Source of the DNA: an uncultured Pseudomonadales bacterium
GTDB taxonomy: Bacteria > Patescibacteriota > Microgenomatia > UBA1400 > PJMF01
Length of the DNA: 64,000 bases
Direction of reading: 5' to 3'
Assembly (NCBI GenBank): GCA_964574595.1
Contig: CAZNOF010000003.1
Span: 80,280-144,279, forward strand
The notes under the pieces are model-generated. The model ran no database searches. It was not told the DNA's origin and saw nothing but the letters and a program-made list of their open reading frames with translations. Below are positions 10,177-43,553 of the stretch, piece by piece (within the stretch, counting starts at the first letter, position 1; every line of letters begins with the position of its first letter). A program made the position numbers and the translations under genes.

Positions 10177-10358
10177 GAGGTTTCTAACCTTTCTTTACTT
10201 TTTAAGGACAAATGAGACGAATTTGACTGATTCAGCAAATGAATCACTTCGACATACTTGAGCAAAGTAATTATACCACTTTGAGCTATTTTAATGCATT
10301 TTATACACACAAATGTAAATACTTCTTTATTACTTATAAAAATGATAAAATCACAGCT

Positions 10359-11654
10359 ATGTCAAAACTAGTGAAGCGTATGCGGCAAGCATTTGCGTTG
10401 TTTTTTTCAATGTTTTTTATTGTTGCGCCTACTTTAGCTAGTTCTCAAGCATATGCAGCGGTTTGTGGAGAGCAAACAGCATCTGGTATGCCTACTTTTT
10501 GTTCTATTGGGTACCACACGGAACCCACTGTGAACATGTCTTGTCCCTTCCCATCGGCGTGTTATCAAGGTTCAAACCCCGCACCAGCGGAGTGTTCTTG
10601 GAGTGTGAATTCCAGTGGTAAACCAACCTATTGCTGGTCTTTTAAAGAATCAGATCCCAACATGCCTTTAATTAAGAATAGTCATCTGCGATTTAACTGT
10701 GTTAATCGCGGAAATATTAATGACTGTGGTGGCATTTTGGCCCAGATGGGTATGCAAACCACTGGTTTTAACTACCAAATCGTTGACCCAAATACCCTAC
10801 CTGGAAATACTCAACCTGGAGACTGTGGTCCAAACTGTCACTTTCAATGTGTCAGCATGGATTACAACCAAGCGAACATTCGCGACTTTATGATGGCTCA
10901 AGGAGTAAGACAGTGTTTACAAACAATAAGTGCTGGCGCAGGTGCAGCCGGTGGAATTGTTGCCGGGCTTGGAGCGGGATTTGCTTTAGTTCCTCTAGCG
11001 GCTGGTAATAGTCTCACAATGCTTGGAACGGTAGTTACTGCGAACGCTGCAGAACTTGGCCTTTCAGGGGCGGCTGGGAAAGCTGCACTCGATCAAGCTA
11101 AAACATGCTTAGCTACATTAAATGGTACAAACGGCCAGAGCTTGCTCGACTGGAATGGATCTGTCACCTCAGCCGACGGTACACAAACCTACTGCAACGC
11201 CAAAACCACATTAACAATGAACACAGCATTCAACGTGATTGGAAATACCACTACTCCTCCAACCACCAATCCAGATAGTCCCTTTAGTTTATGTAATCAA
11301 ATTCCAGATGCTACGCAAAAGCAAAGTTGCCAAACCTGCAACTCTTCAAACGGCGGTGATGAGACAAACATAAAAGCCATTTGGACCTCAATCGGTTGTA
11401 TTCCTACTACTAGTGAAGGAATTGTTGGTTCGTTGGTCAAACTTGGTTTAGGAATTGCTGGAACTGCAGCAGTGCTGATGATTCTCGCTGGCGGCTTTAT
11501 GTTGAGTACTTCTCAAGGTGATACCAAACGAGTTGGTGAAGCCAAAGAGCTCGTCACCTCTGCGGTAATCGGCTTACTCTTTATCATCTTCTCTGTTACT
11601 CTGTTACAATTCATTGGAGTAAAACTGTTCCATATTCCAGGATTTGGGTCGTAA
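10359..11654 (+). CDS. Cys-rich secreted protein with C-terminal T4SS-pilin-like (TrbC/VirB2-like) membrane domain
   Basis: The start was chosen at MSKLVKRM, which has a signal-peptide-like N-terminus; the ORF-track start at 10239 is less likely. The mature part has more than 25 Cys. The C-terminus IAGTAAVLMILAGGFMLSTSQGDTKRVGEAKELVTSAVIGLLFI matches the motif shared by the tandem pilin paralogs at 16.7-20.5 kb. Confidence 0.5.
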   Translation: MSKLVKRMRQAFALFFSMFFIVAPTLASSQAYAAVCGEQTASGMPTFCSIGYHTEPTVNMSCPFPSACYQGSNPAPAECSWSVNSSGKPTYCWSFKESDPNMPLIKNSHLRFNCVNRGNINDCGGILAQMGMQTTGFNYQIVDPNTLPGNTQPGDCGPNCHFQCVSMDYNQANIRDFMMAQGVRQCLQTISAGAGAAGGIVAGLGAGFALVPLAAGNSLTMLGTVVTANAAELGLSGAAGKAALDQAKTCLATLNGTNGQSLLDWNGSVTSADGTQTYCNAKTTLTMNTAFNVIGNTTTPPTTNPDSPFSLCNQIPDATQKQSCQTCNSSNGGDETNIKAIWTSIGCIPTTSEGIVGSLVKLGLGIAGTAAVLMILAGGFMLSTSQGDTKRVGEAKELVTSAVIGLLFIIFSVTLLQFIGVKLFHIPGFGS

Positions 11655-11994
11655 TATGATTCACAAATTATTAGCAGGCGGAGCACCAGCCGGACCAGAT
11701 TTTAATAAGTTTAACCCATTGGTTATTGACCAATCTCCAAACGCGAATACATTTAATAGCCCCGGTGGTGTTATTACCAAAGCTCTCGACTACGCCTTCC
11801 CCATTGCCGGCATGATTCTTTTTGTAATGATTTTATGGGGTGGTTTTGAGATGCTGTCTGGCGCTACTTCTGCCAAAGGCAAAGATGCTGGCAAACAACG
11901 AATCACTGCGGCAGTGATTGGTTTTGTCTTACTGTTCGTTTCTTACTGGATGGCTAAGCTGCTTGAGCTCATTTTTGGCATTAAGATTTTTTAA
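11644..11994 (+). CDS. T4SS-pilin-like small membrane protein (paralog)
   Basis: It carries the same motif as the other pilin paralogs: MILWGGFEMLSGATSAKGKDAGKQRITAAVIGFVLL. Its start overlaps the upstream gene; an alternative start exists at 11656. Confidence 0.5.
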   Translation: MGRNMIHKLLAGGAPAGPDFNKFNPLVIDQSPNANTFNSPGGVITKALDYAFPIAGMILFVMILWGGFEMLSGATSAKGKDAGKQRITAAVIGFVLLFVSYWMAKLLELIFGIKIF

Positions 11995-11997
11995 TCG

Positions 11998-12693
11998 TTA
12001 CTTCCCAAAATTTCGTTTTCTGTTGGAATAGTTTGCCAAGGCTTTGTCGAACTCTTTTGGAGTGAAGTCAGGCATGAGTACTGGAGTGTAAAACCATTCC
12101 GCATAGACGGCTTGCCACGGCATAAAGCCAGATGAACGCTCCTCTCCGCCGGTACGAATGATTAAATCGACATCTGGAATTCCCCGTGTATCAAGCAATT
12201 CGCTAAACTCCGCTTCTTGGATAGTTGCCAATTTTTGTGGAGGAATATTGTGAATGGCACGCAAAATTTCGTCTCGGCCGCCATAATTAAGCGCAAAAGT
12301 AACCGTAATCTTGTTATTATCTTTGGAAATTTCTTGCCAGTGCTTAGCACCTTTTTGAATATCTTCGTCAAACTTAGACATATCACCAATAGTTCTTAAA
12401 CGAACGCCCTTTTTATGGAGCGCTTCGCTTTGTTTCTGAAAAGCTTGGCGAAATAAATTCATCAGACCTGTCACTTCTGCTTCATCACGTTTCCAGTTTT
12501 CAGTACTAAATGCCCACAACGTTAAGTACATAATGTTCAGTTCAATGCAGCGATCAACCAATGGTTCAATCACTTTCTCCGTCACATAGGCATGACCTTG
12601 CAATGCAGCCAGCTTATTTTGCTTAGCCCACCTGCGATTGCCATCCATAATAATTCCCACATGAGCTGGGAGATGTTCTATATTATTCGTCAT
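11998..12693 (-). CDS. uppS: Isoprenyl transferase (undecaprenyl-diphosphate synthase)
   Basis: The N-terminus HVGIIMDGNRRWA and the C-terminal RTGGEERSSGFMPWQ motif are UppS hallmarks. Confidence 0.9.
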   Translation of the reverse strand: MTNNIEHLPAHVGIIMDGNRRWAKQNKLAALQGHAYVTEKVIEPLVDRCIELNIMYLTLWAFSTENWKRDEAEVTGLMNLFRQAFQKQSEALHKKGVRLRTIGDMSKFDEDIQKGAKHWQEISKDNNKITVTFALNYGGRDEILRAIHNIPPQKLATIQEAEFSELLDTRGIPDVDLIIRTGGEERSSGFMPWQAVYAEWFYTPVLMPDFTPKEFDKALANYSNRKRNFGK

Positions 12694-14851: not shown

Positions 14852-15049
14852 TTACTTGAGGAAAATTCGCACGATCAATGTTGTAATCCCCGATAAAATC
14901 AGTAATGTCTGCCAAGGATACTTACCTATTAAGGAAGTAATTGGATCAATTTGCTTTGGTAGCCAACGGACGGTATTTAGCGGTGCCTGCAAATTAGCTT
15001 GATGTTGCAACTCATTTAAAAATTGCTGTTGTGATTTGGATTTGGTCAT
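14852..15049 (-). CDS. Putative membrane-anchored anti-sigma factor (small single-TM protein translationally coupled to the ECF sigma gene)
   Basis: It has a 4-nt ATGA overlap with the upstream sigma gene. The C-terminal TM is LLILSGITTLIVRIFL. Confidence 0.4.
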   Translation of the reverse strand: MTKSKSQQQFLNELQHQANLQAPLNTVRWLPKQIDPITSLIGKYPWQTLLILSGITTLIVRIFLK

Positions 15050-15573
15050 GTGCTTTCTACTCCATACAACTCTCTAAACTCATCTCTAGCTCTGAATAAA
15101 ATAGACTCCACTGACTTGACGGAACGACCGGTTTCTTTGGCAATTTGGGCAACTTTCTTCTTATCTAAGTACTTCATTAGCAGAATTTCTTTATATTCTT
15201 GATTCATATGCTGCAGAACTGAAATGACGTGTTGGGAGATTTCTTCTGGATGCTGAACTGGTTCGGTGGTTAAAAACTCAGACAGAGGCAGGGCTAAAAT
15301 AAACTTTTTGGCATACCGCTTCCGGTAATAATCGGCAACTTCATGGTGTGCCACATGCATCATCCAAGTCCAAATACTTGATTCACCACGGAAAAGTGGC
15401 AGCGATTTCAAACAACTTAAGAAAATATCCTGGGTGACTTCTTCTGCATCTGAGGCTGTCACCACTTTTTTGAGAACATGCCGATACATCTTTTGATGAA
15501 ACAGCTCATACCACTCCCGCACCGCTCTAGGAGAAGCCTGCTTTAACTGCTGGAGCAAAAGCTCTTCATTCAT
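15046..15573 (-). CDS. ECF-type RNA polymerase sigma-70 family factor
   Basis: Sigma region 2 reads DIFLSCLKSLPLFRGESSIWTWMMHVAHHEVADYYRKR. Region 4 has an HTH (KKKVAQIAKETGRSVKSVESILFRAR). Confidence 0.85.
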   Translation of the reverse strand: MNEELLLQQLKQASPRAVREWYELFHQKMYRHVLKKVVTASDAEEVTQDIFLSCLKSLPLFRGESSIWTWMMHVAHHEVADYYRKRYAKKFILALPLSEFLTTEPVQHPEEISQHVISVLQHMNQEYKEILLMKYLDKKKVAQIAKETGRSVKSVESILFRARDEFRELYGVEST

Positions 15574-16757: not shown

Positions 16758-17174
16758 ATGAAGAAATCTGGGATTAGTTTTATTATTATCTCGATTACAG
16801 CAATTTTTCTTGCCCTTTCTTTTTTTGTACCTCAAACAGTATTGGCAGCTAACACAAATTGTGACCCAACCTCAGCAGGCTTGAAGATTGGAGACTGTTT
16901 ACAACTTAGCGAGGGTCAACCAGTTAGTAGTGTTTATGACAAACCAGCTGTTCTCGTTAACCTCCTCACCAGTAATATCTTCATTGCTGGCGGAATTATT
17001 CTCTTAGTGATGATCATTTACGCTGGCTTTCAATTCATTACTGGCGGAGCTAAAGGCATGGAACAGGCCAAAAGTGTGCTTGGTACAGCTTTAATGGGCT
17101 TTATTATTATGTTTATGGCTTACTGGATCTTGAGAATTATCAAAATTATAACTGGAGCAAACATCCTTTTTTAG
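16758..17174 (+). CDS. T4SS-pilin-like (TrbC/VirB2-like) small membrane protein, tandem paralog 1
   Basis: A signal-like N-terminal TM is followed by two TM helices with the family motif AGGIILLVMIIYAGFQFITGGAKGMEQAKSVLGTALMGFII. Confidence 0.6.
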   Translation: MKKSGISFIIISITAIFLALSFFVPQTVLAANTNCDPTSAGLKIGDCLQLSEGQPVSSVYDKPAVLVNLLTSNIFIAGGIILLVMIIYAGFQFITGGAKGMEQAKSVLGTALMGFIIMFMAYWILRIIKIITGANILF

Positions 17175-17192
17175 ATAGTGTAAAATAGTCAT

Positions 17193-17582
17193 ATGATTTT
17201 AACTTTACTAGCAGACAGCGTATTTGGAACAATTAATCCACCGGCCGGTGTAAAAGAATTTGATGCCTCGCCAGGAGCAAATGGTCTTGGAATCATCGTC
17301 TTCTTCTCCAACTTAATCAAAATCGGTACCGTTATTGCCGGAATTTTAGTCTTCGTCAACATTTTGATGGCAGGCTTTACCTACGTGAGTGCTGCTGGAG
17401 ATTCAGGCACGCCAGATAAAGTTAAAGATCAAATTCTGCACAGCGTGATTGGTTTAGCCATTATCGTCTTGTCTTACTTAATCATTGCCTTAATTAGTTT
17501 CGTCCTCTTCAAAGATCCAGGATATATCTTAAATCCAACCATTACCGGGCCAGGAACATCAACTGCGCCAACAGGACCATAA
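17193..17582 (+). CDS. T4SS-pilin-like small membrane protein, tandem paralog 2
   Basis: Motif: MAGFTYVSAAGDSGTPDKVKDQILHSVIGLAIIVLSY. Confidence 0.6.
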   Translation: MILTLLADSVFGTINPPAGVKEFDASPGANGLGIIVFFSNLIKIGTVIAGILVFVNILMAGFTYVSAAGDSGTPDKVKDQILHSVIGLAIIVLSYLIIALISFVLFKDPGYILNPTITGPGTSTAPTGP

Positions 17583-17965
17583 TGACATCAAGATTAATTG
17601 CTGCAGAAACCAAACTCGGCACCTTTGAACCACCATCTACCATTTTAAAATCTTCAGATTTAACATCTGGAGCAGGTGTAACCACCAAGTTAGAAGCCGT
17701 TCTCTCTGAATTCCTAGGTATCGTCACCATCGTGGCCAGTATTGCTTTGATTTTCTACTTTATTATCGGCACTTTAAACTGGATTACCTCAAATGGTGAT
17801 TCCGGTAAAATTCAAAAAGCTCGTGAAGCCATGATTCAATCCGTATCTGGAATGGTCCTCGTTGTCGCTGCCTACGGCTTGATTGGCTTAATTGGCAACT
17901 TCTTAGGTCTTCACATTCTTAACCCAGGCACTGCTCTCTTAAATATCGTGAATGGAACGCCATGA
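17582..17965 (+). CDS. T4SS-pilin-like small membrane protein, tandem paralog 3
   Basis: It is start/stop-coupled to the previous gene (ATGA overlap). Motif: IIGTLNWITSNGDSGKIQKAREAMIQSVSGMVLV. Confidence 0.6.
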   Translation: MTSRLIAAETKLGTFEPPSTILKSSDLTSGAGVTTKLEAVLSEFLGIVTIVASIALIFYFIIGTLNWITSNGDSGKIQKAREAMIQSVSGMVLVVAAYGLIGLIGNFLGLHILNPGTALLNIVNGTP

Positions 17966-18399
17966 AAAAACAGTTTTTAAAAACTCTTACCGTTACAACT
18001 TCTTTTATTGGAAGTTCTGTCATTTTGCCAGCTCAAATCTTTGCAGCCGGTATCACCAACCCAGCCATTGGCTCATTGGGTGATAGTTCAACCAAAGCAG
18101 AAAGTGGTAGTACCTTTACTGGCTACTTCGTCACGATTTGGAGAGCCTTAATTTTTGTGGGCGTTTTAGCCTTACTCTTCAACTTACTCAATGGTGGGCT
18201 TGACTGGATTTTAGCTGGTGGTGAAGCCGCCAAAATTCAAAAAGGCCGTGACAAAATGGTCCAATCAGTTATTGGTATGGTCATTTTAGCCGGATCATTC
18301 GTAATTATTTCTTACGTCAGTAGTCTCTTATTTAACTTTGACTTGCTGAACTTAACTGTTCCTACTGTAGGGAGCGCAGGCCCAACCGGTACTCCATAA
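17962..18399 (+). CDS. T4SS-pilin-like small membrane protein, tandem paralog 4
   Basis: It has an ATGA overlap with paralog 3. Motif: LNGGLDWILAGGEAAKIQKGRDKMVQSVIGMVIL. Confidence 0.6.
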   Translation: MKKQFLKTLTVTTSFIGSSVILPAQIFAAGITNPAIGSLGDSSTKAESGSTFTGYFVTIWRALIFVGVLALLFNLLNGGLDWILAGGEAAKIQKGRDKMVQSVIGMVILAGSFVIISYVSSLLFNFDLLNLTVPTVGSAGPTGTP

Positions 18400-18406
18400 C
18401 ATATCT

Positions 18407-18796
18407 ATGAAACACACTCTCTTAGCTCAAACGCTGAATTTTCGACAAGAAGCCACTACACAGCAACTTCCTAATGCCGATGGCAACTTAGGATCTGCTT
18501 TAAGTACCGTGATTACTGCTGTGATGGCAATTGGTGTTTTAGCCGCCTTCATCTACATCGTGATGGGTGCTTTTGAGTGGATCACATCTGGTGGTGAAAA
18601 AGGCAAAGTTGAGTCAGCCAGAAATAAGATCACTGGGGCAATTATTGGCTTAATCGTCTTAGCATCTGTCTTTGTAATCATTCTATTAGTTCAAAACTTC
18701 TTGGGCGTGCAAGTGTTTACACTTGGTGGCGCAGCTACAACAACTACCAATGGTGGTGGCGGCGGTGGTTCCAGAATGGTACCAACCCAGTTCTAA
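18407..18796 (+). CDS. T4SS-pilin-like small membrane protein, tandem paralog 5
   Basis: Motif: VMGAFEWITSGGEKGKVESARNKITGAIIGLIVL. It has a Gly-rich C-terminus. Confidence 0.6.
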   Translation: MKHTLLAQTLNFRQEATTQQLPNADGNLGSALSTVITAVMAIGVLAAFIYIVMGAFEWITSGGEKGKVESARNKITGAIIGLIVLASVFVIILLVQNFLGVQVFTLGGAATTTTNGGGGGGSRMVPTQF

Positions 18797-18843
18797 GAAT
18801 TTTTATTAATAAAGAATGAATAAATAGTAGATCTCGAGTGGGC

Positions 18844-18871
18844 TTGACAGTTGCTAGAGGACTACTATAAT
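18844..18871 (+). promoter_or_regulatory. Near-consensus sigma70 promoter for pilin paralog 6
   Basis: TTGACA at 18844-18849 is followed by a 16-nt spacer and TATAAT at 18866-18871. The RBS AAGGAG and the GTG at 18902 lie downstream. Confidence 0.6.
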
Positions 18872-18901
18872 TAAATTACAGTAATTCAAAAAGGAGCCTT
18901 T

Positions 18902-19297
18902 GTGCAAATTTCATCCAGTATTCAACGAAAAATCGGTGTCGCCACCGGAGTCGCAGGTGCATTGTTAGCGAGTGTATCACCAGCTTTTGCTGCTACCACC
19001 ACTCAACAAATCAACTTGACCCCAAACACACCAGGCTTCTTCACCAACGCCAATGACTTAATTTCTAAATTACTTTCCATCGTGATGGTGATCGGCGTGA
19101 TCTTAGTGTTCGCCTTCTTAGTACTCGGTGGTATTGAGTACATCACTTCTGGTGGTGAAAAAGGTAAAACAGAAGCAGCTCGTAACAAAATTACTTCCGC
19201 TGTTATTGGTTTGATCATCTTAGCTTCTTCATATGCTATCTTGACTATCGTCTTAGGATTCTTAGGTACCAACACTACAGATATCTTGAAATTCTAA
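18902..19297 (+). CDS. T4SS-pilin-like small membrane protein, tandem paralog 6; candidate major pilin because it has its own promoter and terminator
   Basis: A GTG start is preceded by AAGGAG (18891-18896). Motif: VLGGIEYITSGGEKGKTEAARNKITSAVIGLIIL. A near-consensus sigma70 promoter sits at 18844-18871 and a perfect 12-bp-arm terminator at 19317-19350. Confidence 0.6.
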   Translation: MQISSSIQRKIGVATGVAGALLASVSPAFAATTTQQINLTPNTPGFFTNANDLISKLLSIVMVIGVILVFAFLVLGGIEYITSGGEKGKTEAARNKITSAVIGLIILASSYAILTIVLGFLGTNTTDILKF

Positions 19298-19316
19298 AAA
19301 TTAAATGAATATGTTA

Positions 19317-19350
19317 CCCCCTCCGAGGCTCCTCGGAGGGGGTTTTTGTT
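19317..19350 (+). terminator. Strong rho-independent terminator after pilin paralog 6
   Basis: A perfect 12-nt inverted repeat, ccccctccgagg/cctcggaggggg, is followed by TTTTTGTTT. Confidence 0.75.
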
Positions 19351-19391
19351 TCTGATCACTGTCTGGTATAATTTCTGATTATTGAGCCTTT

Positions 19392-19994
19392 ATGAAATCA
19401 ACGTTTCTCGCCTTCTGTTTACTTGTTCTTACTTTTTTAGGTAGCGCTCATCTTGTTAATCAAGTTCAAGCAGCCGGCGATGTGGTCATTGCTACACAGT
19501 CAGGCGCGACTTACTTAACCACAACGACCACAACCACCACAGTAGAGACTGTTACCACGACACCAACACCGATCGCTACTCTGTCTGGCACGCCAATTCC
19601 AATTGCTCAGGGACACGTTTTCTTGCCACCTGGATTTTTCCCAAGTGCTAATGCCTTAGTAAATGATCTATTTAAAGTGATCATGATCATTGCTGTAATT
19701 TTGGTGTTTGCGTATTTGGTGCTTGGTGGCTTCCAGTACATTACTTCCGGAGGAGAAAAAGGCAAAACGGAAGCAGCTAGAAATAAAATGATTTCTGCAA
19801 TCGTAGGATTAATCATTGTGGCTTCTTCATATGCCATTTTAACAATTGTCCTTAACTTTATTGGTTACAGAGACGTAACTGGCTTTTTACAAGTTGGCCC
19901 AACTGTTACCCCAACACCAGTCGCCCCGCTCGTCTCACCATCACCTCTGGTTACACCTACGCCTAGTTCCTTACTCAAACAACTGATAAAATAG
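19392..19994 (+). CDS. T4SS-pilin-like membrane protein, tandem paralog 7, with poly-Thr insert and Pro/Thr-rich C-terminal extension
   Basis: Motif: VLGGFQYITSGGEKGKTEAARNKMISAIVGLIIV. It has a TTTTTTTVETVTTTPTP linker and a PTVTPTPVAPLVSPSP tail. Confidence 0.6.
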   Translation: MKSTFLAFCLLVLTFLGSAHLVNQVQAAGDVVIATQSGATYLTTTTTTTTVETVTTTPTPIATLSGTPIPIAQGHVFLPPGFFPSANALVNDLFKVIMIIAVILVFAYLVLGGFQYITSGGEKGKTEAARNKMISAIVGLIIVASSYAILTIVLNFIGYRDVTGFLQVGPTVTPTPVAPLVSPSPLVTPTPSSLLKQLIK

Positions 19995-20004
19995 AAAAGC
20001 ACCC

Positions 20005-20466
20005 ATGAAAAAGCTCATTTTAGACACAGTCCGTATCTCCACTTTGCTTTTACCTCTCTTGATCTTGATTTTTGCCCCAACCGTCTCTGCGCAAACAGTA
20101 CAGTGGACTGGTGTATGTGTAGGCAAATCAATGACATCAGGTACTTCTGGCGGAAATGTAGATGCTGGCGATGTAGCTACAATACAAGGCTTTCAATGTT
20201 TAATTGGTAATGTCTTAATGATCTCAATTACCGGAATTGGTTTAATTGGCTTTGTGATGTTTATTGTCGGCGCCTTTCATTACATGTTGTCTGGTGGCAA
20301 TGCCAAAGGCACTGAGCAAGCCAAGAACACGATTACCTATGCCGTGATCGGTCTAGTTGTAGCGTTATCTGCGTTCATTATTTTGAACTTGGTTTCTAGC
20401 TTCACAGGCGTGAAGAGTATCTTGAACTTCACCATCTCACCTCCAAGTACCACCCCACTGAACTAA
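20005..20466 (+). CDS. T4SS-pilin-like small membrane protein, tandem paralog 8
   Basis: Motif: IVGAFHYMLSGGNAKGTEQAKNTITYAVIGLVVA. Confidence 0.6.
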   Translation: MKKLILDTVRISTLLLPLLILIFAPTVSAQTVQWTGVCVGKSMTSGTSGGNVDAGDVATIQGFQCLIGNVLMISITGIGLIGFVMFIVGAFHYMLSGGNAKGTEQAKNTITYAVIGLVVALSAFIILNLVSSFTGVKSILNFTISPPSTTPLN

Positions 20467-20510: not shown

Positions 20511-23500
20511 ATGATGTTTTATCGCCAGAGACGCTTCGTCATCTTTAGCTTGGTTTTGTTTCTGTCTGTGCTCTTGCTGGCCAAATTTGCTTCCCCTTTA
20601 TATTTAAAAGCTCAATCTTCTGCGACATCAGCGTTGGCGGCCTTAGCAGATCCTGGTGGCGACGGTGGCAGCAATGTGGGTACCAATATCGGTGTGGGAG
20701 ATGTTACCGCACAAGTAGACATCATTGATAACGTCATCGCTCGAAACGGGGCGGGAGCAGGCTTTCCAGTTACGGTGTTACTCTATGAAAACAGTATGCC
20801 AGATGACGTGAAGAAAATTGCTGATGCCATGAAGAGACACAGCTTTTTCCCGATTGTGCGTATCGACCATATTTGTGACCACTCCGTTTCAGATTCACAG
20901 CAAATCGTGAGCATCGTCAGACAAGAATTTGGAGCTGACACGGTCATCGCTTTTGGCAATGAGATCAACAACCAAGAAATTGAGTGTAAAGATTGGGCAA
21001 AGTATGAGCAAAATTACCGCGCCGTTCAAAGCGGCATCACTGCCCCATCTGCTATCGACTTCTACAATGGAAATCCGGCATTTAAGTTTGATAAATTGCC
21101 TGGTAGCTTACAAGGTTTGATTAATGGCTCAAGCATCAGAGCTGCCAACGCCTACGGCTGTGTGGGTACGAAAGCAGCAGGTTGTAATGATGGTGCTATG
21201 GGCACATACACCACTGGTTTAACTGGCACAGATGGCAAGAAACTCTATGTCACTGAGTTCAGTCTTTCTCCAGAAGGAAGAGTGGCCGATGCACCAGATA
21301 CCGATCTCACCAAAGTACTCTACTTCATTAAAAAATTTGCTCCTCAAGTTCGAGCAGAGAAAATCACTCCTTTAATTAGAAACGTGTGTAATGGCGACGG
21401 TGAGTGGCTGATTTACGTCAAAGGCCAAGTTTTCACCATGCACGGCCAAAACGTCACCAAGAGTTGTGCCGGCACCAAAGTTCCTTTCTACGAATTCAAC
21501 ATTCAGCGCGAAACAAGTCAAAATGTGGTCAATAATTTTTACGATGAGTACTCTGTGGCCTGCTTACCAAAAGAGGAATACACGCTTGGCTTTGAAAACG
21601 ATCCAGCCAAATGTGGTGATCCAAATTCTGGCTTGATCTGTCCGATTGATTGGAAAAGCTGGAATATCCCTGGCAAATTAAAAATGACGGCAGATGGGAA
21701 GACCTATGGTCTTTTCAGAAACCAATCGGCTGTAGAAGCACGATCAGGCGGAAACACGCCTGCAAAAAGAGGTGAATCTGTAGAGGCGTTAATTTCTCAA
21801 CCTAACCCAGACGCGCCGACATCTACTGCAGTTCCAACCACCACGACTTCAGATAAATCAAATGCCTCTCTCAAACAAGCACCTATGTATAATCTGACCA
21901 CTTTGTCACAGCAGTGCAGCTTTGTGGTGGATAAATTAAAAGCTGTCCACGAACTATGTAAGCCTGAAAATCGAGTTGAAACATATAAAACTGCAGGAGA
22001 AGTCTCACCTCAGGACTCCACTGAAGATTGTGGTCTGAACACCAATATTCCAAGTACCAGCAAACCGTATGATCAGGAAAGCATGCTTGCGGCTTTCCAA
22101 AGTAAAAATATGACCTGCGAAGATTTAGCAGATTCACAAAAACCAGAAGATAGATCATTTCTGTCAGACTTACTTAAAGTGAATGTCTCAATGGAAACAG
22201 CCTACCGTCCGGCCTTTATCGTAGCGGTTACTACATTTGATGCTCCAAATAGTACGGACAACGTCACGACCCACACATCAGATGACGCCGGCGTAGAACC
22301 AGTCACTGGTCAAAAATTCCAAGTCATTGACTATCTAGAAGTGAAAGTACCGGCACTTGCTTCTGACTTCTTGCCAACCAAGAGTCCAGAACACAGCTCT
22401 TCTCTCATCAATCCAGACAGAAATAATTACCGCGACCCAATGCAACTGACGGCGGACGTGCTGAGAACCAGTGAAGACCAATCAGATGTGTTCCAACAGG
22501 AAATAGATCAACGAAAGGTCCTCCGTGAATTTGAAAAGCGCGGTTCAATAAATGGCAGCATTATTGGCGACAACGGGAACATGCCGATCTTCTGTAATGT
22601 AGGCGGCAAGCTGTATGCCAACTGTGACATCCCAGCCCAAACGGGAGACAATTATGTAGACCAGGTCCCACCAGCACTCGTTAAGTTCATCAACGCCAGC
22701 GCGACCGTTCAAAACCTAGGAGATTGGGATTCTTTGCCCTGCAACGCCCGAGAAGTTGACATTTATGGTGAAGAAAAAAACAAAGCTCGAATTGCAGAAC
22801 AAGGAAAAACAATCTTAGCCCAACTTAAAGCCCAACCAATTGGTCCATATCAAAAAAGAACTGAAATATCCACAAATATCTCAGTTAAGGTCAAAGATAT
22901 TACTAAAGGTGGCAATATCACCACTCACACCGAGCTATACTTCGTAACGCCACAACGTTACGCAATGCAGTACGCGCAAAATAGCTTCTTATCTTTCTTA
23001 ACCACAGGTGTGAAACAAGGCTTCATTGATCCTCAAGTCAAAGCTGACGTGTATAACCCAACCAAATTTAGTCCATTATTAAAGAGTGAATTGGCTAAAA
23101 CCTTAACTGGCCGTGAAGTGAAAACTGGCGCCTACAGACTTGAAGCTGGCACTCTGGCTCCCACTGCTCCAGGAGCCACCCCAGTACCAACCACCAACAA
23201 GAAAATGGTTGATTTATTTGGCTTAATTAATGACACCAGTGACTTTGCCTACACTCAAAGCATTTTCTGGCGAGTAGCTGGCCAAGTAGCTAGCTTACCA
23301 AGTCGAATGCTAGCCTTAGTTAACTTACGCGATGGCTCACCGATGTATGACTACACCCGCGGATGTACTGGAAATTACGCCACAGATGACTGGTTTACTG
23401 GCAACTGTCTGAGAGCACCAGACAACGCTCAGGCAGCTTCTCCATCTGCCGGAACAACGGGCAACGTCTGTATTGAAACAAAGATTGATGACCCCGCGGT

Positions 23501-24014
23501 GCTGGCCGATTATGCTGCCAAGTTAAAGGACTATTTGGGCCAAGCCTCTACTCTAGACTTATGGACCAGATACTTTGCTGGATACCTGCCAGGAGCAACG
23601 CCTTACTTGTTTAGTGTGAATGATGCTCGTTGTGACGCTTCACAACCCTGCTATGACAAAGTCATTGATACAGCAGTGGCGCACAAGATCAATCCATACT
23701 TAGCAATTGCGATTGCCCTAAACGAAACTGGTGGTTTCCGCAGTAACCAGGCTGACGCTTCCGGGCCTCACTTTGGCTGTGGTGTGAACTTAGATCCAAA
23801 TGGCCCAACTATTGGCTTTGGCACTATTCCAAGCAAGTTAAACTGTATGGTCGGGGCGTTTGATAACTATGAAAACACCGGCTTAGATGCCAATGCCGCA
23901 CTGACTAAATATGGATATGCCAATGGATTTAAGAACCAGAACCTCACCAAAATTATAGGCATTATCAGCCATCAAACATACGCAGGAAACTGTACTGGAT
24001 CAGTTGAAAACTAA
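20511..24014 (+). CDS. Large secreted protein (1167 aa) with C-terminal lysozyme-like / lytic-transglycosylase-like domain (VirB1-analogous cell-wall hydrolase candidate)
   Basis: It has an N-terminal signal/TM. The C-terminal segment at about 23650-23830, VIDTAVAHKINPYLAIAIALNETGGFRSNQ, resembles the catalytic Glu-containing helix of lysozyme-like transglycosylases. The rest of the protein is unassigned. Confidence 0.5.
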   Translation: MMFYRQRRFVIFSLVLFLSVLLLAKFASPLYLKAQSSATSALAALADPGGDGGSNVGTNIGVGDVTAQVDIIDNVIARNGAGAGFPVTVLLYENSMPDDVKKIADAMKRHSFFPIVRIDHICDHSVSDSQQIVSIVRQEFGADTVIAFGNEINNQEIECKDWAKYEQNYRAVQSGITAPSAIDFYNGNPAFKFDKLPGSLQGLINGSSIRAANAYGCVGTKAAGCNDGAMGTYTTGLTGTDGKKLYVTEFSLSPEGRVADAPDTDLTKVLYFIKKFAPQVRAEKITPLIRNVCNGDGEWLIYVKGQVFTMHGQNVTKSCAGTKVPFYEFNIQRETSQNVVNNFYDEYSVACLPKEEYTLGFENDPAKCGDPNSGLICPIDWKSWNIPGKLKMTADGKTYGLFRNQSAVEARSGGNTPAKRGESVEALISQPNPDAPTSTAVPTTTTSDKSNASLKQAPMYNLTTLSQQCSFVVDKLKAVHELCKPENRVETYKTAGEVSPQDSTEDCGLNTNIPSTSKPYDQESMLAAFQSKNMTCEDLADSQKPEDRSFLSDLLKVNVSMETAYRPAFIVAVTTFDAPNSTDNVTTHTSDDAGVEPVTGQKFQVIDYLEVKVPALASDFLPTKSPEHSSSLINPDRNNYRDPMQLTADVLRTSEDQSDVFQQEIDQRKVLREFEKRGSINGSIIGDNGNMPIFCNVGGKLYANCDIPAQTGDNYVDQVPPALVKFINASATVQNLGDWDSLPCNAREVDIYGEEKNKARIAEQGKTILAQLKAQPIGPYQKRTEISTNISVKVKDITKGGNITTHTELYFVTPQRYAMQYAQNSFLSFLTTGVKQGFIDPQVKADVYNPTKFSPLLKSELAKTLTGREVKTGAYRLEAGTLAPTAPGATPVPTTNKKMVDLFGLINDTSDFAYTQSIFWRVAGQVASLPSRMLALVNLRDGSPMYDYTRGCTGNYATDDWFTGNCLRAPDNAQAASPSAGTTGNVCIETKIDDPAVLADYAAKLKDYLGQASTLDLWTRYFAGYLPGATPYLFSVNDARCDASQPCYDKVIDTAVAHKINPYLAIAIALNETGGFRSNQADASGPHFGCGVNLDPNGPTIGFGTIPSKLNCMVGAFDNYENTGLDANAALTKYGYANGFKNQNLTKIIGIISHQTYAGNCTGSVEN

Positions 24015-24020
24015 CTGAAA

Positions 24021-24914
24021 TTAACTTCGGGAACCTTCAGCGGGCGTGTATTCTTGAGGCACTTTTTTTGATTCTACTTTTTTGACTTCATTTTTTACTG
24101 GTTTATTTATGACGGATTGATGGGCTAAATTTGCAGCAGTGAGCATACTCTTAGATCGAGAAACTCGCCGACCACCAGCACGAAGCAGTTTTGAGACGAT
24201 TTCAAATGTATCAGCGGTTGTTGCCAATGATTGCATTTTATCCGTTGCCATCTCAATGCCGGTAATTAAGTTGGTGGCAATATCCCCCGTTATTTCCACG
24301 CCTAGTTCTTGCAACAGGTAGGCCATCACTTCTGATGTTGAAGCAGCTCCCATGGTACTGACTTTAATCGAGCCAAAGGGTGTTTCGTAACTATTCACAC
24401 TAATCGTGATTGAGTCCTCGTAAAGCTGCTCATAACCTTCGTAAAGCGCGTTCAACGAGTCCAAACTGGACACGCCAACTAAGAAAATAGCGTCGGCAGA
24501 GGCACCTGAGTAAGAAAACTCTACGGTTTTTGAATCAAGTGGTTTTGAGTCTTTGCGTGGTTGAATAATTAAGCGAAATTTCTTGGCTTCTTCGTCAATG
24601 TTATAACTGACTTTATCGACCATATCTTCTTGATAATCAAAAGAAATTTCTAAGTTCTTATTGCCCATTTCTTTGGATGTTTTTTCTACTCCGGAAATTT
24701 GAGAAAACTCATGAGAAGGCTTGGTGGGACAAAGCAAAAGACTACTCTTTCCTAATGACAACAGCCCGTCGTGTAAAGCCACTGCCGAGGCAACTTGATC
24801 AACGCTGGCTTGATTGGAATAAATGACTAAAATAGATTTGGCCTCAGAAACGGTATGTTGGATGGTTTGGACTTGATCAGGTGTAAGCATATGGATTCTG
24901 TCTACTATAACCAA
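24021..24914 (-). CDS. Hypothetical cytoplasmic protein; weak, unverified resemblance to a DHH-family phosphoesterase fold lacking catalytic residues
   Basis: This is a convergent 297-aa ORF. Only a loose architecture similarity to NrnA-like proteins is visible, and no DHH or GGGH motifs are present. Confidence 0.3.
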   Translation of the reverse strand: MVIVDRIHMLTPDQVQTIQHTVSEAKSILVIYSNQASVDQVASAVALHDGLLSLGKSSLLLCPTKPSHEFSQISGVEKTSKEMGNKNLEISFDYQEDMVDKVSYNIDEEAKKFRLIIQPRKDSKPLDSKTVEFSYSGASADAIFLVGVSSLDSLNALYEGYEQLYEDSITISVNSYETPFGSIKVSTMGAASTSEVMAYLLQELGVEITGDIATNLITGIEMATDKMQSLATTADTFEIVSKLLRAGGRRVSRSKSMLTAANLAHQSVINKPVKNEVKKVESKKVPQEYTPAEGSRS

Positions 24915-24999: not shown

Positions 25000-26655
25000 G
25001 TGAAAAAATGGTTCTCGATACTTTTTCTATCCCTCTTTGTGCTCATTTCTTTTGCTCGCCCAGTTAGTACGTTTGCTCAAGTAACGTGTCCAGTAGGAAC
25101 ACCTCCCGGTCAAATTGGTCAGAATCCAACTTGTTCCGGTTGTGCACCAGGATTAATTGTCGGTGCTGCTAGTAAATGTATGACTCCGGCGCAACTTCAA
25201 ACAAGTCAATGGACCATCCCAGTCATGCAACAAATTGACAAGGGCCGAGACGATCAAGAAGCAAACAACCCAAACTTGCGTGGAACTGGTTTCGATATCT
25301 TATCAACAGTGGTCGGTGGTTTAGGACAAATTGTTTTAACGGGCTCAGATAAAAAAGGTACTTTAACCGGTGACTCTGGTGTAACCAGTGCTGCCAAAAT
25401 GATTGGTATGCTCTACGTTCCTCCAGCCACTTCTCAAGAGTACATTGCCGATGTTTTGAAAGACGCCGGCGTGGCAACCCCAGCCTATGCGCAAGGATTA
25501 GGATTTTCAGCATTAGCTCCAGTACTTGAGACCTGGAAAATTTTCCGAACAGTCGCCTACTTCTTCTATGTGGTCATCTTCTTAATTATTGGATTCATGA
25601 TTATGTTCCGCCAAAAAATTGGGAGTCAAACCGTCGTAACTGTTCAACAGGCATTACCAAAACTCTTAATCTCTTTGATCGCCGTGACTTTCTCATACGC
25701 TATTGCTGGTTTCATGATTGAGGTGATGTATTTGGCGATGTCATTCATCGTCAACGTATTTGCCTCTGGCACATTGGGTGCAGAAAAAATTAATGGCCAA
25801 ACCATTCAGCAGTTCGGATCAAACAGTAATATCTTCAACATCGCTGGCATTATTATCAGTGGTGGCTTCCAGAACACGGTCAGTAATTCCGTGGGCAACA
25901 TGGTGAACGGTGTCTTAGGCATTCAACCAGATCAAGCGGGCGCTATCTTAGGCAGTATCACCGGCTTAGCAGCTGTGGTGGTCTTTGCCATTGCCCTCCT
26001 CTTCAGTCTCTTTAGATTATTCTTTGAACTTTTGAAAACCTACATCACGCTCATCATTATGATCGTGACCGCACCAGTTGCTTTGATGCTTGGCGCTTTA
26101 CCAGGCAACAACGCTTTTTCAAGTTGGTTGAAAGGGTTGTTCTTTAACTTAGCCGTCTTCCCAACTGTGTTATTAACTATCGTGATGGCCTTCTTGCTCC
26201 AAACCAGTATTTCAAATAACGGTGGCTTCTTACCTCCATACATTGGTGGCGTAGGAACAGCCGGATCAGTCGCCCCTCTCTTAGGATTGGGTGTCTTACT
26301 CGTTATTCCAGATATCGTCACTAAAGTGAAAAAGATGGCTCCAGCAGGACCATTTGATGAGTTTGCCAATAAAGCTGCAGCCGCTGTCAAACAAGGTTGG
26401 AAAGGTGGAGAGCTGGTTCCAGGACTTGGCTTTACAGACACCAGAAAACTTCCACTCGGTGGCTTAAGTGGTCAAAACGTTGTAACCAAACCATTTACAT
26501 CTGGATACGGTTTAGCCAAGGATTTGACTGGCAAAGTGGCGGCTGGTGGAGTTGGCAATGTCTTGCCATTTACTAGACGTGTTACACCTCCTCAAAAGAC
26601 AACTATTGATGAGAATAAGAATATGCCTGATCCAAGTCGAAGAAATAGAGTCTAA
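25000..26655 (+). CDS. Polytopic membrane protein, VirB6/TrbL-like T4SS channel component candidate
   Basis: It has a signal peptide, a Cys-containing extracytoplasmic N-domain, then at least six hydrophobic helices (FFYVVIFLIIGFMIMF, LISLIAVTFSYAIAGFMIEVMYLAMSFIV, and others). The topology is typical of VirB6/TrbL. Confidence 0.5.
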   Translation: MKKWFSILFLSLFVLISFARPVSTFAQVTCPVGTPPGQIGQNPTCSGCAPGLIVGAASKCMTPAQLQTSQWTIPVMQQIDKGRDDQEANNPNLRGTGFDILSTVVGGLGQIVLTGSDKKGTLTGDSGVTSAAKMIGMLYVPPATSQEYIADVLKDAGVATPAYAQGLGFSALAPVLETWKIFRTVAYFFYVVIFLIIGFMIMFRQKIGSQTVVTVQQALPKLLISLIAVTFSYAIAGFMIEVMYLAMSFIVNVFASGTLGAEKINGQTIQQFGSNSNIFNIAGIIISGGFQNTVSNSVGNMVNGVLGIQPDQAGAILGSITGLAAVVVFAIALLFSLFRLFFELLKTYITLIIMIVTAPVALMLGALPGNNAFSSWLKGLFFNLAVFPTVLLTIVMAFLLQTSISNNGGFLPPYIGGVGTAGSVAPLLGLGVLLVIPDIVTKVKKMAPAGPFDEFANKAAAAVKQGWKGGELVPGLGFTDTRKLPLGGLSGQNVVTKPFTSGYGLAKDLTGKVAAGGVGNVLPFTRRVTPPQKTTIDENKNMPDPSRRNRV

Positions 26656-33951: not shown

Positions 33952-35793
33952 ATGTCAAAAGAGACCCCCTTCTACTCAGAAGCGGCTGACTTTCAGCCCT
34001 CAAAAGAACGTTTTAACCCAGAAGTAACTTCACAGGAGTCATTGTGGCGAATTGATTTTATTTTAAAACGATATTCTCAGGGTGACTTAACTCACCCTCG
34101 GGAAGCGCTCAGAACAGATTTTCAGGCTTTAGCCCATGAAGAACTCCTAGCTCAGCGGAAAATGTCGTGGAGTCGAGAGCTGCATGACTATGGCACAACT
34201 GGTGGAGGCTACGATGATCCTCTTCAAAGAATGACCCAAAACTACGTCTCCTATATCGGCCGAGAAAATGGCGATATCAGTCGGGCGATTCTAGAAAACT
34301 TGATGTTAAAAGAGACAGAGACTATCGCCGCCGAAACAGCGGAAGAACCAGGCACATTCATGGTTTGGATTAGTCCACCTGGTCCAGTAGAACAAGGCTA
34401 TCAAGGTATTACCTCAGCTCAAGACTGGACTGCTCCGGAAAAATTCCCTTCCAAAATCTACATTATGTGGTCTGAGGGCGCCGAAATGAAAACGGTTCAG
34501 TTAACTGGTTGGCCAAATGTGGATCAGCTCGTTTCCTTCTGGGAGAAGCTCAATGGCAAACCGTTTCCTCATGGCGATAAAGAAAATATTTTGCTGGAAC
34601 TCATTGCCAACTTGACAGTGAAAAAGGACTTTGCGGGAACACCTGAAGAGTTCGTGAATCAGGTTTCGCAAGATTTCTTTGCTTCTCAGGAAAGCTGGAG
34701 CAATGCCGTAGAGATGCCCAGCGTGAATCCGGAGAAATTTGATCAAGAAGTTGAAAAAGGCTGGCAAGAATTTTATTGGCCAGAAGTTCAAAAGTTGTTA
34801 AGCGTCATTCCGAAAGATTTAACCGACAACGATCCATTCTGGAGCTCTGAAGAATACCGGCAAGTAGTTCAAGAACTTGACTTGGCTTTTGCTTATTACT
34901 TCAGAACACTTAGTCTCTTTGTTTCTCAAGGTGATAAAGCAAAAATGATTCCCTGGCCAAAAGTCAGAAAATCATTTCATTTTGACTGTGATGTAAAGGT
35001 GTATGGCAAAAAAGCATCTGTTCGAGAGATGAAAAATCACACTGCCGTCTTGAGGACATTCATGGACATCGGGAACAAAGGATTTAGTGTCTCGCAATGT
35101 GGACTACTCGCACCATTCCCAACAGCGCTAAACGCAATGAAAAGCGCCGGGAACTTTAATGGTGTGCTAGGACTGAACGGGAATTTTAAGAAAGAATTTT
35201 CCCCAGCATATGCTGAAAAACTACAGTCGGAGGAGTATCAGTTAAAACTCGCCGAGTATCAACGAATTCAAACAGGTAATTACCAAGAGCTCACATTGAC
35301 CGTGAATGGTGAAGATGTTCACTACATGGTTCCGGCAGACTTTTTGACTGGCAAGGGATGTTTTGTGGCTGAAGTTGATGGCCAAGAGGTTGCCATGGGA
35401 CCGTGTGATATTCCGCTAGACACCATCTTTAAAGACCCAAATGAAAATCTTGTCTACAAAATGTCTGCTTTAGAATTTGCCGAACATGCGAGGCAACTCT
35501 ACAACTTTCTATTTGCTGATGAGCTAGAAACAGCGGCCAATAGTATTGACAAGAACCCACAGCTTTCACAAACAGAGAAACAAAAGGCGAAGCAACTACT
35601 TGCTGAGCTCGAAACAATTATTTTTAAGCCAACTATCGGTCTAAGTGAGTTGGTCGCTGGCGTGACACCATTCAATGAAGATGCTGGTCTGTACTTGCCT
35701 GGACAGATTACCCAACAACTTCATCAGTCAAAGAATCCTATAAAATTGCTGGAAGAAATGGTCTTTTCCACGTCTGTGTTTAGTAGCTCTTGA
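33952..35793 (+). CDS. Hypothetical protein (613 aa), translationally coupled to the downstream giant protein
   Basis: Its stop overlaps the 35790 start (ATGA). Confidence 0.5.
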   Translation: MSKETPFYSEAADFQPSKERFNPEVTSQESLWRIDFILKRYSQGDLTHPREALRTDFQALAHEELLAQRKMSWSRELHDYGTTGGGYDDPLQRMTQNYVSYIGRENGDISRAILENLMLKETETIAAETAEEPGTFMVWISPPGPVEQGYQGITSAQDWTAPEKFPSKIYIMWSEGAEMKTVQLTGWPNVDQLVSFWEKLNGKPFPHGDKENILLELIANLTVKKDFAGTPEEFVNQVSQDFFASQESWSNAVEMPSVNPEKFDQEVEKGWQEFYWPEVQKLLSVIPKDLTDNDPFWSSEEYRQVVQELDLAFAYYFRTLSLFVSQGDKAKMIPWPKVRKSFHFDCDVKVYGKKASVREMKNHTAVLRTFMDIGNKGFSVSQCGLLAPFPTALNAMKSAGNFNGVLGLNGNFKKEFSPAYAEKLQSEEYQLKLAEYQRIQTGNYQELTLTVNGEDVHYMVPADFLTGKGCFVAEVDGQEVAMGPCDIPLDTIFKDPNENLVYKMSALEFAEHARQLYNFLFADELETAANSIDKNPQLSQTEKQKAKQLLAELETIIFKPTIGLSELVAGVTPFNEDAGLYLPGQITQQLHQSKNPIKLLEEMVFSTSVFSSS

Positions 35794-42571: not shown

Positions 42572-42573
42572 CC

Positions 42574-43542: not shown

Positions 43543-43553
43543 AATAGGAACTA

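Follow-up and report, generated by a model that had tools for sequence, protein, structure and literature searches.

A candidate glycan hydrolase with two putative catalytic ends, encoded after VirB2-type pilin arrays in Patescibacteria

Background

A large fraction of uncultured bacteria belongs to the Patescibacteria (the candidate phyla radiation, CPR). Cultivated members carry a Gram-positive-type type IV secretion system (T4SS) with unusual arrays of VirB2-like pilins, and the T4SS and pilins are essential for the epibiotic growth of a cultivated saccharibacterium (PMC10633639). Wall hydrolases with described roles in T4SSs include VirB1, with an SLT domain, PrgK of pCF10, TraG of pIP501 (SLT and CHAP), TcpG of pCW3 and CD419/TrsG (PMC12102498, PMC5770547). 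A 2025 survey reported that most VirB2-bearing Patescibacteria genomes have no detectable VirB1 and left open whether other glycosidases have taken over its role (PMC12102498). In its passage on Candidatus Southlakia epibionticum, that survey describes peptidase and lysozyme homologues downstream of virB4 as essential for epibiotic growth and as proposed replacements of VirB1 (PMC12102498, citing PMC10633639). Here we analyze a gene for a protein of 1167 amino acids (aa) that directly follows an array of VirB2-like pilin genes in a stretch of 64,000 nucleotides, called the window below (contig CAZNOF010000003.1, positions 80,280 to 144,279, assembly GCA_964574595.1), from an uncultured patescibacterium of the class Microgenomatia.

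Like the T4SS wall hydrolases named above, the window protein is encoded inside a T4SS locus, is predicted to be extracytoplasmic, and is multidomain with a lysozyme-superfamily module. The module closest to its C-terminal domain, GH73, has parallels in these systems as well: TcpG has a FlgJ-type domain, and GH73-type hydrolases are encoded on Firmicute plasmids, among them a C. perfringens "glucosaminidase domain-containing protein" and an Enterococcus protein with M23 and GH73 domains. Unlike the known enzymes, the window protein has no SLT, CHAP or NlpC/P60 domain, and it pairs its muralytic module with a barrel of glycoside hydrolase clan GH-A and a core of 650 aa without assignment. Its gene belongs to the pilin operon and lies some 19.5 kb away from virB4 instead of adjoining it; it was not retrievable with the VirB1, TrsG and CD419 profiles implied by PMC12102498. 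It shares with the enzymes of Ca. Southlakia epibionticum a patescibacterial origin, the link to a T4SS and a predicted glycan- or peptide-cleaving function, whereas those belong to the class Saccharimonadia and follow virB4, not a pilin array. By analogy, the protein would resemble a T4SS wall hydrolase in function while standing outside the VirB1/SLT family and under the formal GH73 threshold.

On balance, we lean towards reading it as an exported glycan hydrolase of the pilus operon that opens the wall in a VirB1-like manner with two glycan-cutting ends. Four observations carry this reading: the domain anatomy, the conservation of catalytic-type residues, the invariable linkage to pilin arrays, and the replacement of its terminal module by bona fide lytic domains in relatives. 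In the literature we found no description of a GH-A barrel, a 650-aa core and an exchangeable muralytic module fixed at the end of VirB2 arrays.

Results

The gene closes a pilin operon and keeps this position in divergent loci

The open reading frame (ORF) is intact and starts with a tandem ATG-ATG (Table 1). In the identical public protein P0001, of 1166 aa, the second ATG was taken as the start. Homologues with 22–68% identity align over the full length, which together with the conserved place after the pilin array shows that this is a true gene and that the ORF did not arise by chance. A hydropathy scan found a single hydrophobic segment at aa ~6–33, all other scan windows reaching at most 1.13. 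It is followed by an AxA-like site (LKA↓QS), and AxA↓Q-type sites stand at the same place in the homologues. Of the 24 cysteines of the protein, several are invariant across the family. Sec export is likely, given the signal-like N-terminus, the sites in the homologues and the number of cysteines, and the leader may be cleaved or serve as an anchor. A secreted protein of this length directly after the pilin genes, as the earlier note on this DNA had described it from the letters alone, is thus borne out, with export at the level of a prediction.

All eight tandem genes upstream match Pfam family PF18895 (T4SS_pilin), five with scores that exceed the gathering cut-off, which identifies all eight as VirB2-like pilins of a T4SS and not of type IV pili. 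From the last pilin gene to the ORF there are 44 nt, in which no terminator-like site was found on the + strand, and a convergent gene (24021–24914) starts 6 nt after the ORF stop. These features make the ORF the terminal gene of the pilin operon, and it is probably co-transcribed with the pilin genes.

We then compared 13 other loci, four obtained by exact protein look-up and nine by a metagenome scan, in which ORFs were called and searched with a hidden Markov model (HMM) of the window's eight pilins. In all 13, as in the window (14 of 14 in total), a pilin array on the same strand directly precedes the family gene. The arrays comprise 2–10 tandem genes, the gap to the family gene ranges from −1 to 128 nt, and protein identity to the window goes down to ~22%.

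Database searches with the whole protein gave little. The family has no above-threshold match in Pfam, NCBIfam or PHROGs: a NCBIfam scan of the whole protein gave no match, nor did a PHROGs scan of the protein in three parts. Against PDB sequences, phmmer returned chance matches only (luffaculin, Bcl-2-like, gasdermin) and the full-length family profile returned none. No relative was found in the GTDB genome contigs scanned with the window protein, and no paralogue turned up when all window ORFs were compared with it by BLASTP.

The C-terminal domain is a probable divergent relative of GH73

For the C-terminal domain, HMMER was run exhaustively over 1.84 billion cluster representatives and identified 57 proteins at E≤1e-3, nearly all carrying it at the C-terminus of proteins of 1000–1250 aa. 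In an alignment of 48 members with 31–75% identity to the window, N1071, E1072, G1075, G1089, K1109 and Y1134 are invariant, and P1062, H1087, F1088, C1090, C1112, G1135 and Y1136 nearly so. AlphaFold2 (AF2) folded the domain with this alignment at a pLDDT of 89.7 and a pTM of 0.88. The peptide on which the earlier note had based its proposal of a lysozyme-like C-terminus, AVAHKINPYLAIAIALNETGGFRSN, corresponds to aa 1055–1079 and includes E1072, which sits in the motif A-I-A-L-N-E-T-G-G and ends the helix 1062–1073 at its C-terminal side in the AF2 models.

The only Pfam family that the window C-terminal domain matches is GH73 (PF01832). The isolated domain scored 24.2 bits (E=5.9e-5, profile positions 4–106 of 123), below the cut-off of 30.2, and the whole protein 20 bits (E=0.0012). 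PF01832 was matched by 10 of the 48 family members at E≤1, every other family by at most one. Structure comparison pointed the same way, with no significant match: Foldseek placed the GH73 catalytic domain of LytB first in PDB (7pj3, E=2.3, TMq 0.40) and a phage beta-N-acetylglucosaminidase first in BFVD (E=0.64, TMq 0.50), with three more GH73 entries and three SLT/GEWL entries further down the BFVD list. We also built a GH73 reference alignment (A4) of 11 sequences, namely the FlgJ proteins of E. coli and Sphingomonas, taken from a PDB alignment, and nine plasmid GH73 domains. Its HMM gave the window domain 8.4 bits (p=1.2e-4), above all 1920 shuffled controls (best 7.1 bits). At p≤0.01 it detected 16.7% of family members versus 1.8% of shuffles and 2.1% of reversed sequences, a roughly tenfold enrichment over shuffles. 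Finally, hhalign of the family against FlgJ and against A4 gave probabilities below 1%, with local alignments that are collinear and consistent with the motifs. They pair KINPYLAIAIALNETGGF...PHFGCG with GVPHHLILAQAALESGWG...NLFGVK, so that E1072 falls on the GH73 catalytic Glu, as it also does in the A4 HMM alignment. Against FlgJ, hhalign further pairs ALTKYGYANGF..NLTKII with ALQDAGYATDPHYARKLTNMI, and the reverse HMM search gave the same pairing.

Compared with described GH73 enzymes (PF01832: FlgJ, LytB, AcmA, Listeria Auto), the domain has the same order of helices, a catalytic-type Glu at a helix end (AIALNETGG versus AQAALESGWG), an x-F-G motif next (PHFGCG versus NLFGVK), and a late G-Y-A motif followed by an L-x-x-I-I helix (YGYANGFKNQNLTKII versus AGYATDPHYARKLTNMI). 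The HFGC and YGYA motifs of the family, in which H, F and C of the former and G1135 and Y1136 of the latter are near-invariant and the G of HFGC and Y1134 invariant, are collinear with N-x-F-G-[IV]-K and G-Y-A-T-D...L..I-I of GH73 in these non-significant alignments. N-x-F-G-[IV]-K and G-Y-A-T-D are invariant or nearly so in A4, whereas their Lys and T-D are not kept in the window domain, which also lacks the Trp of E-S-G-W-G. Further differences are the score under the Pfam gathering cut-off, the near-invariant C1090/C1112, K1109 and an N-terminal extension of two helices (aa ~995–1037).

The largest structural departure is in the β-hairpin lobe, which in several GH73 enzymes, such as FlgJ and Auto, bears a second acidic residue. 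Where GH73 has a lobe of ~30 residues after the FG motif, the window domain has a loop of ~18 residues (aa 1091–1108, from HFGCG to KLNCM) without strands of 3 or more residues in the AF2 model, and in the A4 domains the stretch from the FG motif to the following helix is ~40 residues long. No second invariant acidic residue was found in the C-terminal family. The near-invariant C1090 (in HFGC) and C1112 (in KLNCM), at 23778–23846, flank the shortened loop and are without counterpart in A4. They may form a family-specific disulfide that replaces the missing lobe.

We also considered an SLT or VirB1-type lytic transglycosylase, the identity that the earlier note had suggested. The window protein gave no match to SLT (PF01464) or SLT_3 (PF18896) even at E≤10 and lacks the E-S...G-[LV]-[MF/W]-Q motif, whereas the FG and GYA motifs specific to GH73 are present, and this candidate was dropped. 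A PDB search with the C-terminal family profile gave only a spurious TALE-repeat match to "NPYLAIAIALNE", and a word-indexed homologue search gave nothing with the domain alone and no new members with the family alignment.

We conclude with good confidence that the C-terminal domain is a divergent lysozyme-superfamily member that lacks the β-lobe and stands closest to GH73, not to the SLT/VirB1 type. The fold assignment is probable rather than proven because all links to GH73 are sub-threshold. Catalysis by the domain is plausible, given the invariant Glu. The earlier proposal therefore holds in its lysozyme-like part, which a compact and confident fold, the invariant Glu and relatives exclusively in the lysozyme superfamily support, but not in its VirB1-type part. 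For the catalytic residue and the fold that it had asked to be checked, the outcome was as follows: the catalytic Glu was found (E1072, invariant in 48 sequences and placed on the GH73 Glu by hhalign and the A4 HMM, in non-significant alignments), while structure prediction gave a confident model with GH73 at the head of the Foldseek lists but no significant match. If activity is shown, this compact offshoot of GH73 and the lysozyme superfamily would be of interest for enzyme classification.

The N-terminal domain has the fold and catalytic pair of clan GH-A

An AF2 model of the full-length protein, built from an alignment of 37 sequences, had a mean pLDDT of 76.7, exceeding 90 over aa 60–180. 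Eight alternating strands and helices occupy aa 55–303. Strand 4 (145–151) ends in N150-E151, and strand 7 (244–252) bears T248-E249. Foldseek of this model against PDB gave 16 matches at E≤1e-3 with probability 1.00 (best E ~1e-4), which we placed on the N-terminal domain from their alignment length of ~280–320 columns. The top-ranked matches were GH79 heparanase/β-glucuronidase, GH26 lichenase and GH53 galactanase, all clan GH-A barrels, and GH5 mannanases of the same clan came just below the threshold (E from 4e-3 to 1.5e-2). N150-E151 is kept in 12 of 13 relatives and T248-E249 in 11 of 13; R117, Y215 and W299 are conserved as well. Two close relatives (P0004 and P0005) have lost the NE and/or TE motif.

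As in clan GH-A (the 4/7 superfamily, with GH79, GH26, GH53 and GH5), the model is a (β/α)8 barrel in which strand 4 ends in Asn-Glu and strand 7 bears a Glu. Unlike described members, it has no match to a GH family at the sequence level and shares one chain with a muralytic module, in an operon of a secretion system. Against Pfam, the window N-terminal domain gave no match at E≤1, so it belongs to no named GH family, GH5 (PF00150) included. hhalign of this domain against the GH5-type barrels of relatives was not significant; we therefore treat hhalign as insensitive here and do not count its low scores as negative evidence.

By modeled fold and catalytic pair, the N-terminal domain belongs to clan GH-A and has the signature of a retaining β-glycosidase. 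To our knowledge, no GH-A family acts on peptidoglycan, which makes some other polysaccharide of the wall or surface the probable substrate of the barrel. The N-terminal ~1000 residues had earlier been left unassigned, as a possible adhesin or ruler. With the barrel at aa ~55–310, only the middle ~650 aa stay without assignment.

A constant core carries exchangeable end modules

The middle core (aa ~335–985) gave no match in Pfam, PHROGs or PDB sequences and folds as mixed α/β with moderate confidence in AF2. It is the constant part of the family: from about residue 305 onward, the family profile aligns to many proteins whose first ~300 residues differ. Their N-terminal modules are of at least three types, namely GH5-type barrels with NEP...YIGEAG motifs (P0026 at the PF00150 cut-off with 23.5 bits, P0023 weaker), another barrel with NEP/ITETG motifs (P0033), and a Cys-rich module without annotation. 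An extra GH5-type barrel is present in P0012.

The C-terminal slot is equally variable. The GH73-like domain fills it in the window and in L001, L097 and L098, with a divergent form in L105. SLT_3 (PF18896) takes its place in P0012, above the cut-off at 9.3e-11, and more weakly in P0009–P0011, while L104 has a canonical SLT domain (PF01464, 27.4 bits versus a cut-off of 21.3). Two further module types have E-S-G or G-P-L-Q-I-like motifs and no Pfam match, and one more gives no clue. In L099 the slot holds a VirB2-type pilin domain (PF18895 at 34.7 bits; our own pilin HMM at 4e-14, aa 992–1071).

The presence of three different lysozyme-superfamily modules in one slot of one scaffold independently supports a muralytic C-terminus in the window protein. 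The SLT/VirB1-type reading fails for the window protein itself, while SLT and SLT_3 domains in the same slot of distant relatives support its functional idea. In the Rosetta-stone sense, the fusion to a pilin domain hints that the scaffold works at the pilus.

Several members deserve a separate remark. The L099 gene (7010–10246, metagenome contig Ga0209976_10000002) has the same GH-A N-terminal domain and core, so that its product is in effect a giant-headed pilin. P0012 (L003, 10001–14488, 1495 aa) combines a GH5-type barrel (PF00150), the family NE/TE barrel and a C-terminal SLT_3, which would put three predicted glycan-cleaving modules on one chain. A third C-terminal module type of relatives (GCVALLRAGDIGRE...GPFLVIDVAA) was considered as a DPBB/3D domain for its resemblance and dropped, as Pfam was blank.

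Proposed role and alternatives

In the mechanism that we propose, a Sec-exported, disulfide-rich enzyme would belong to the VirB2-type pilus/T4SS apparatus of this Microgenomatia-class bacterium. Its C-terminal module, with E1072 as the general acid, would cleave the glycan strands of peptidoglycan, at the GlcNAc-β1,4-MurNAc bond if GH73 chemistry holds. The N-terminal barrel would act as a retaining enzyme, with E151 as acid/base and E249 as nucleophile, on a β-linked wall or surface polysaccharide other than peptidoglycan, and the conserved core would keep the protein in place on the pilus or where the pilus is assembled. Jointly with the M23 peptidase protein of the same locus, the enzyme could open a local gap in a thick wall for assembly of the pilus and T4SS, as a functional analogue of VirB1, PrgK, TraG or TcpG in other T4SSs. 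Export, substrates, bond specificity, target wall and pilus docking are what we infer in this scheme, and the biochemical claims rest on sub-threshold homology. On these terms, the family is a concrete candidate for the missing wall-opening (VirB1) function in Microgenomatia, with interchangeable muralytic modules of the GH73-like, SLT_3 and SLT types.

Several points weigh against this role. The GH73 links of the C-terminal domain lie below conventional thresholds (24.2 versus 30.2 bits in Pfam, E=2.3 and 0.64 in Foldseek, below 1% in hhalign), the β-hairpin lobe is missing, and the family has no invariant second acid. The other end is a GH-A barrel, yet we know of no family in that clan that acts on peptidoglycan. 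The protein may be dispensable for assembly, because the locus already has the M23 protein and a SpoIID-domain protein lies nearby. The same data are also compatible with either the producer's own wall or a host wall as the target.

This last point opens a reading that we consider possible, if rather unlikely: an enzyme turned on the host as a weapon or for feeding. Either secreted or borne by the VirB2-type pilus, on its surface or at its tip, it would digest host surface polysaccharide with the GH-A barrel and peptidoglycan with the GH73-like module. Its purpose would be attachment, penetration or nutrient scavenging instead of opening the producer's own wall. Exchange of both end modules around a retained core is typical of enzymes that track variable targets, and a glycosidase head for something other than peptidoglycan has no obvious role in the self wall. 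Head swapping and the fusion of the core to a pilin domain in one relative (L099) somewhat favor this host-directed reading. In Saccharibacteria, the T4SS and its pilins are essential for epibiotic growth, and so are envelope proteins that degrade polysaccharides (PMC10633639). On the other side, the window protein itself has no pilin domain, Sec export alone would not bring the protein to a host, and remodeling of the self wall fits the same data equally well. The second, non-peptidoglycan glycosidase head and the core-pilin fusion both lead one to ask if the pilus has an enzymatic action on the envelope of the host. A bolder form of the idea, which we regard as doubtful, makes the protein the enzymatic "drill head" of a patescibacterial VirB2-type pilus, in which the ~650-aa core docks and two exchangeable heads digest host surface polysaccharide and peptidoglycan. 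The T4SS pilus would then be an armed penetration or feeding device, like the tail-associated depolymerases and lysins of phages.

Readings without a dedicated pilus enzyme fare worse. The protein could have a structural, adhesive or spacing role in the pilus apparatus, with its glycosidase-like domains as non-catalytic binding modules, as the middle 650 aa without an enzymatic signature, the lost NE and/or TE motifs of P0004 and P0005, and the weak GH73 similarity with its absent β-lobe would allow. We think this improbable: E1072 in N-E-x-G-G is invariant in 48 sequences at 31–75% identity, N150-E151 and T248-E249 are kept in 11–12 of 13 relatives, and the C-terminal slot holds SLT and SLT_3 above Pfam cut-offs in other relatives. 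Least credible of all is a general housekeeping autolysin of growth or division that stands beside the pilin genes by chance. Wall-metabolism genes do lie nearby, encoding the SpoIID-domain protein (6753–8480) and undecaprenyl-diphosphate synthase (11998–12693). Yet the gene directly follows the pilin array in the window and in 13 of 13 very divergent loci, the C-terminal domain occurs in only 57 representatives among 1.84 billion proteins, and one relative has the pilin domain fused to the core.

Other features of the locus

The features of the gene and its surroundings are listed in Table 1. The window is a stretch of chromosome, with dnaA at 45852 and dnaN at 47870. A class I aminoacyl-tRNA synthetase encoded in it has its best relatives, with no more than 69% identity, in metagenome-assembled genomes (MAGs) labelled Patescibacteria, Pacebacteria, Woesebacteria, Chisholmbacteria, Collierbacteria and Gottesmanbacteria, names that point to the class Microgenomatia. 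Many of the closest records for this synthetase bear the title "uncultured Pseudomonadales" or "Gammaproteobacteria" bacterium, and these MAG records look mislabelled.

Table 1 Positions in the window of the hydrolase gene, its domains and associated genes
Feature	Position	Strand	Details
Whole gene	20511–24014	+	1167-aa multidomain protein, predicted to be exported; last gene of the + strand pilin operon
Signal peptide or signal anchor (predicted)	20511–20612	+	aa 1–34: MMFYRQRR, ~20-residue hydrophobic core, LKA↓QS
Clan GH-A-like (β/α)8 barrel, aa ~55–310	20673–21440	+	N150-E151 at 20958–20963; E249 at 21255–21257
Family-defining middle core, aa ~335–984, mixed α/β, conserved cysteines	21513–23462	+	No known domain
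GH73-like (lysozyme-superfamily) domain, aa 985–1167; putative catalytic core ~1040–1160	23463–24011	+	E1072 at 23724–23726
Eight tandem VirB2-like T4SS pilin genes	16758–20466	+	PF18895
ECF-type sigma-70 factor (predicted), 175 aa, candidate regulator of the pilin/hydrolase operon	15046–15573	−	Synteny with sigma70_r2/r4 genes in L001, L004 and L005
M23 giant protein, 1464 aa, C-terminal M23 peptidase domain, cluster of transmembrane (TM)-like segments	35790–40184	+	PF01551, E=2e-9
T4SS core genes: PrgI/VirB3-like 41213–42571; 322-aa ORF; VirB4 ATPase 43554–45704	41213–45704	+	Followed by dnaA and dnaN

The M23 giant protein, which the earlier note had paired with the hydrolase, is real and scores above the Pfam cut-off. 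Its HxH motif reads HLH, and a simple search of the domain found no canonical HxxxD, so its activity should not be assumed. The TM-like segments lie at aa ~973–1132, and aa 495–540 have a weak TnsA_C-like match.

Regulation of the array may be dedicated. The predicted sigma factor gene of the window is divergent to the pilin operon, and a divergent ECF-type sigma factor (PF04542/PF08281) precedes the array in all three other loci where this side is visible (L001, L004 and L005), a conservation that suggests such control. Within the array, the pilin gene at 18902–19297 has a perfect sigma-70 consensus promoter upstream (TTGACA-16-TATAAT, 12/12, 18844–18871) and a strong 12-bp GC-rich terminator hairpin directly 3' of it (19316–19343). 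It may encode the major, highly expressed pilin, with read-through into the downstream genes including the hydrolase gene.

A second, small pilin cluster lies upstream (10239–11994). One protein of this cluster has 471 aa, several TM-like segments and, at its C-terminus, a T4SS_pilin domain (E=1.2e-4). The ORF after it encodes 116 aa and has hydrophobic segments, and the pair also occurs in L001 (2036–3621). The SpoIID-domain protein (575 aa, − strand, E=6e-16), of a type associated with peptidoglycan remodeling, adjoins pilin genes in L001 and L003 as well.

VirB6-like subunits are scarce in Microgenomatia (PMC12102498). The gene at 25000–26655 (+ strand) encodes a 551-aa polytopic membrane protein with at least 6 hydrophobic segments and no Pfam match, which is a candidate VirB6-like channel subunit. 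Its position, two genes after the hydrolase gene, is kept in L001, L004 and L005, where the proteins have ~544–574 aa.

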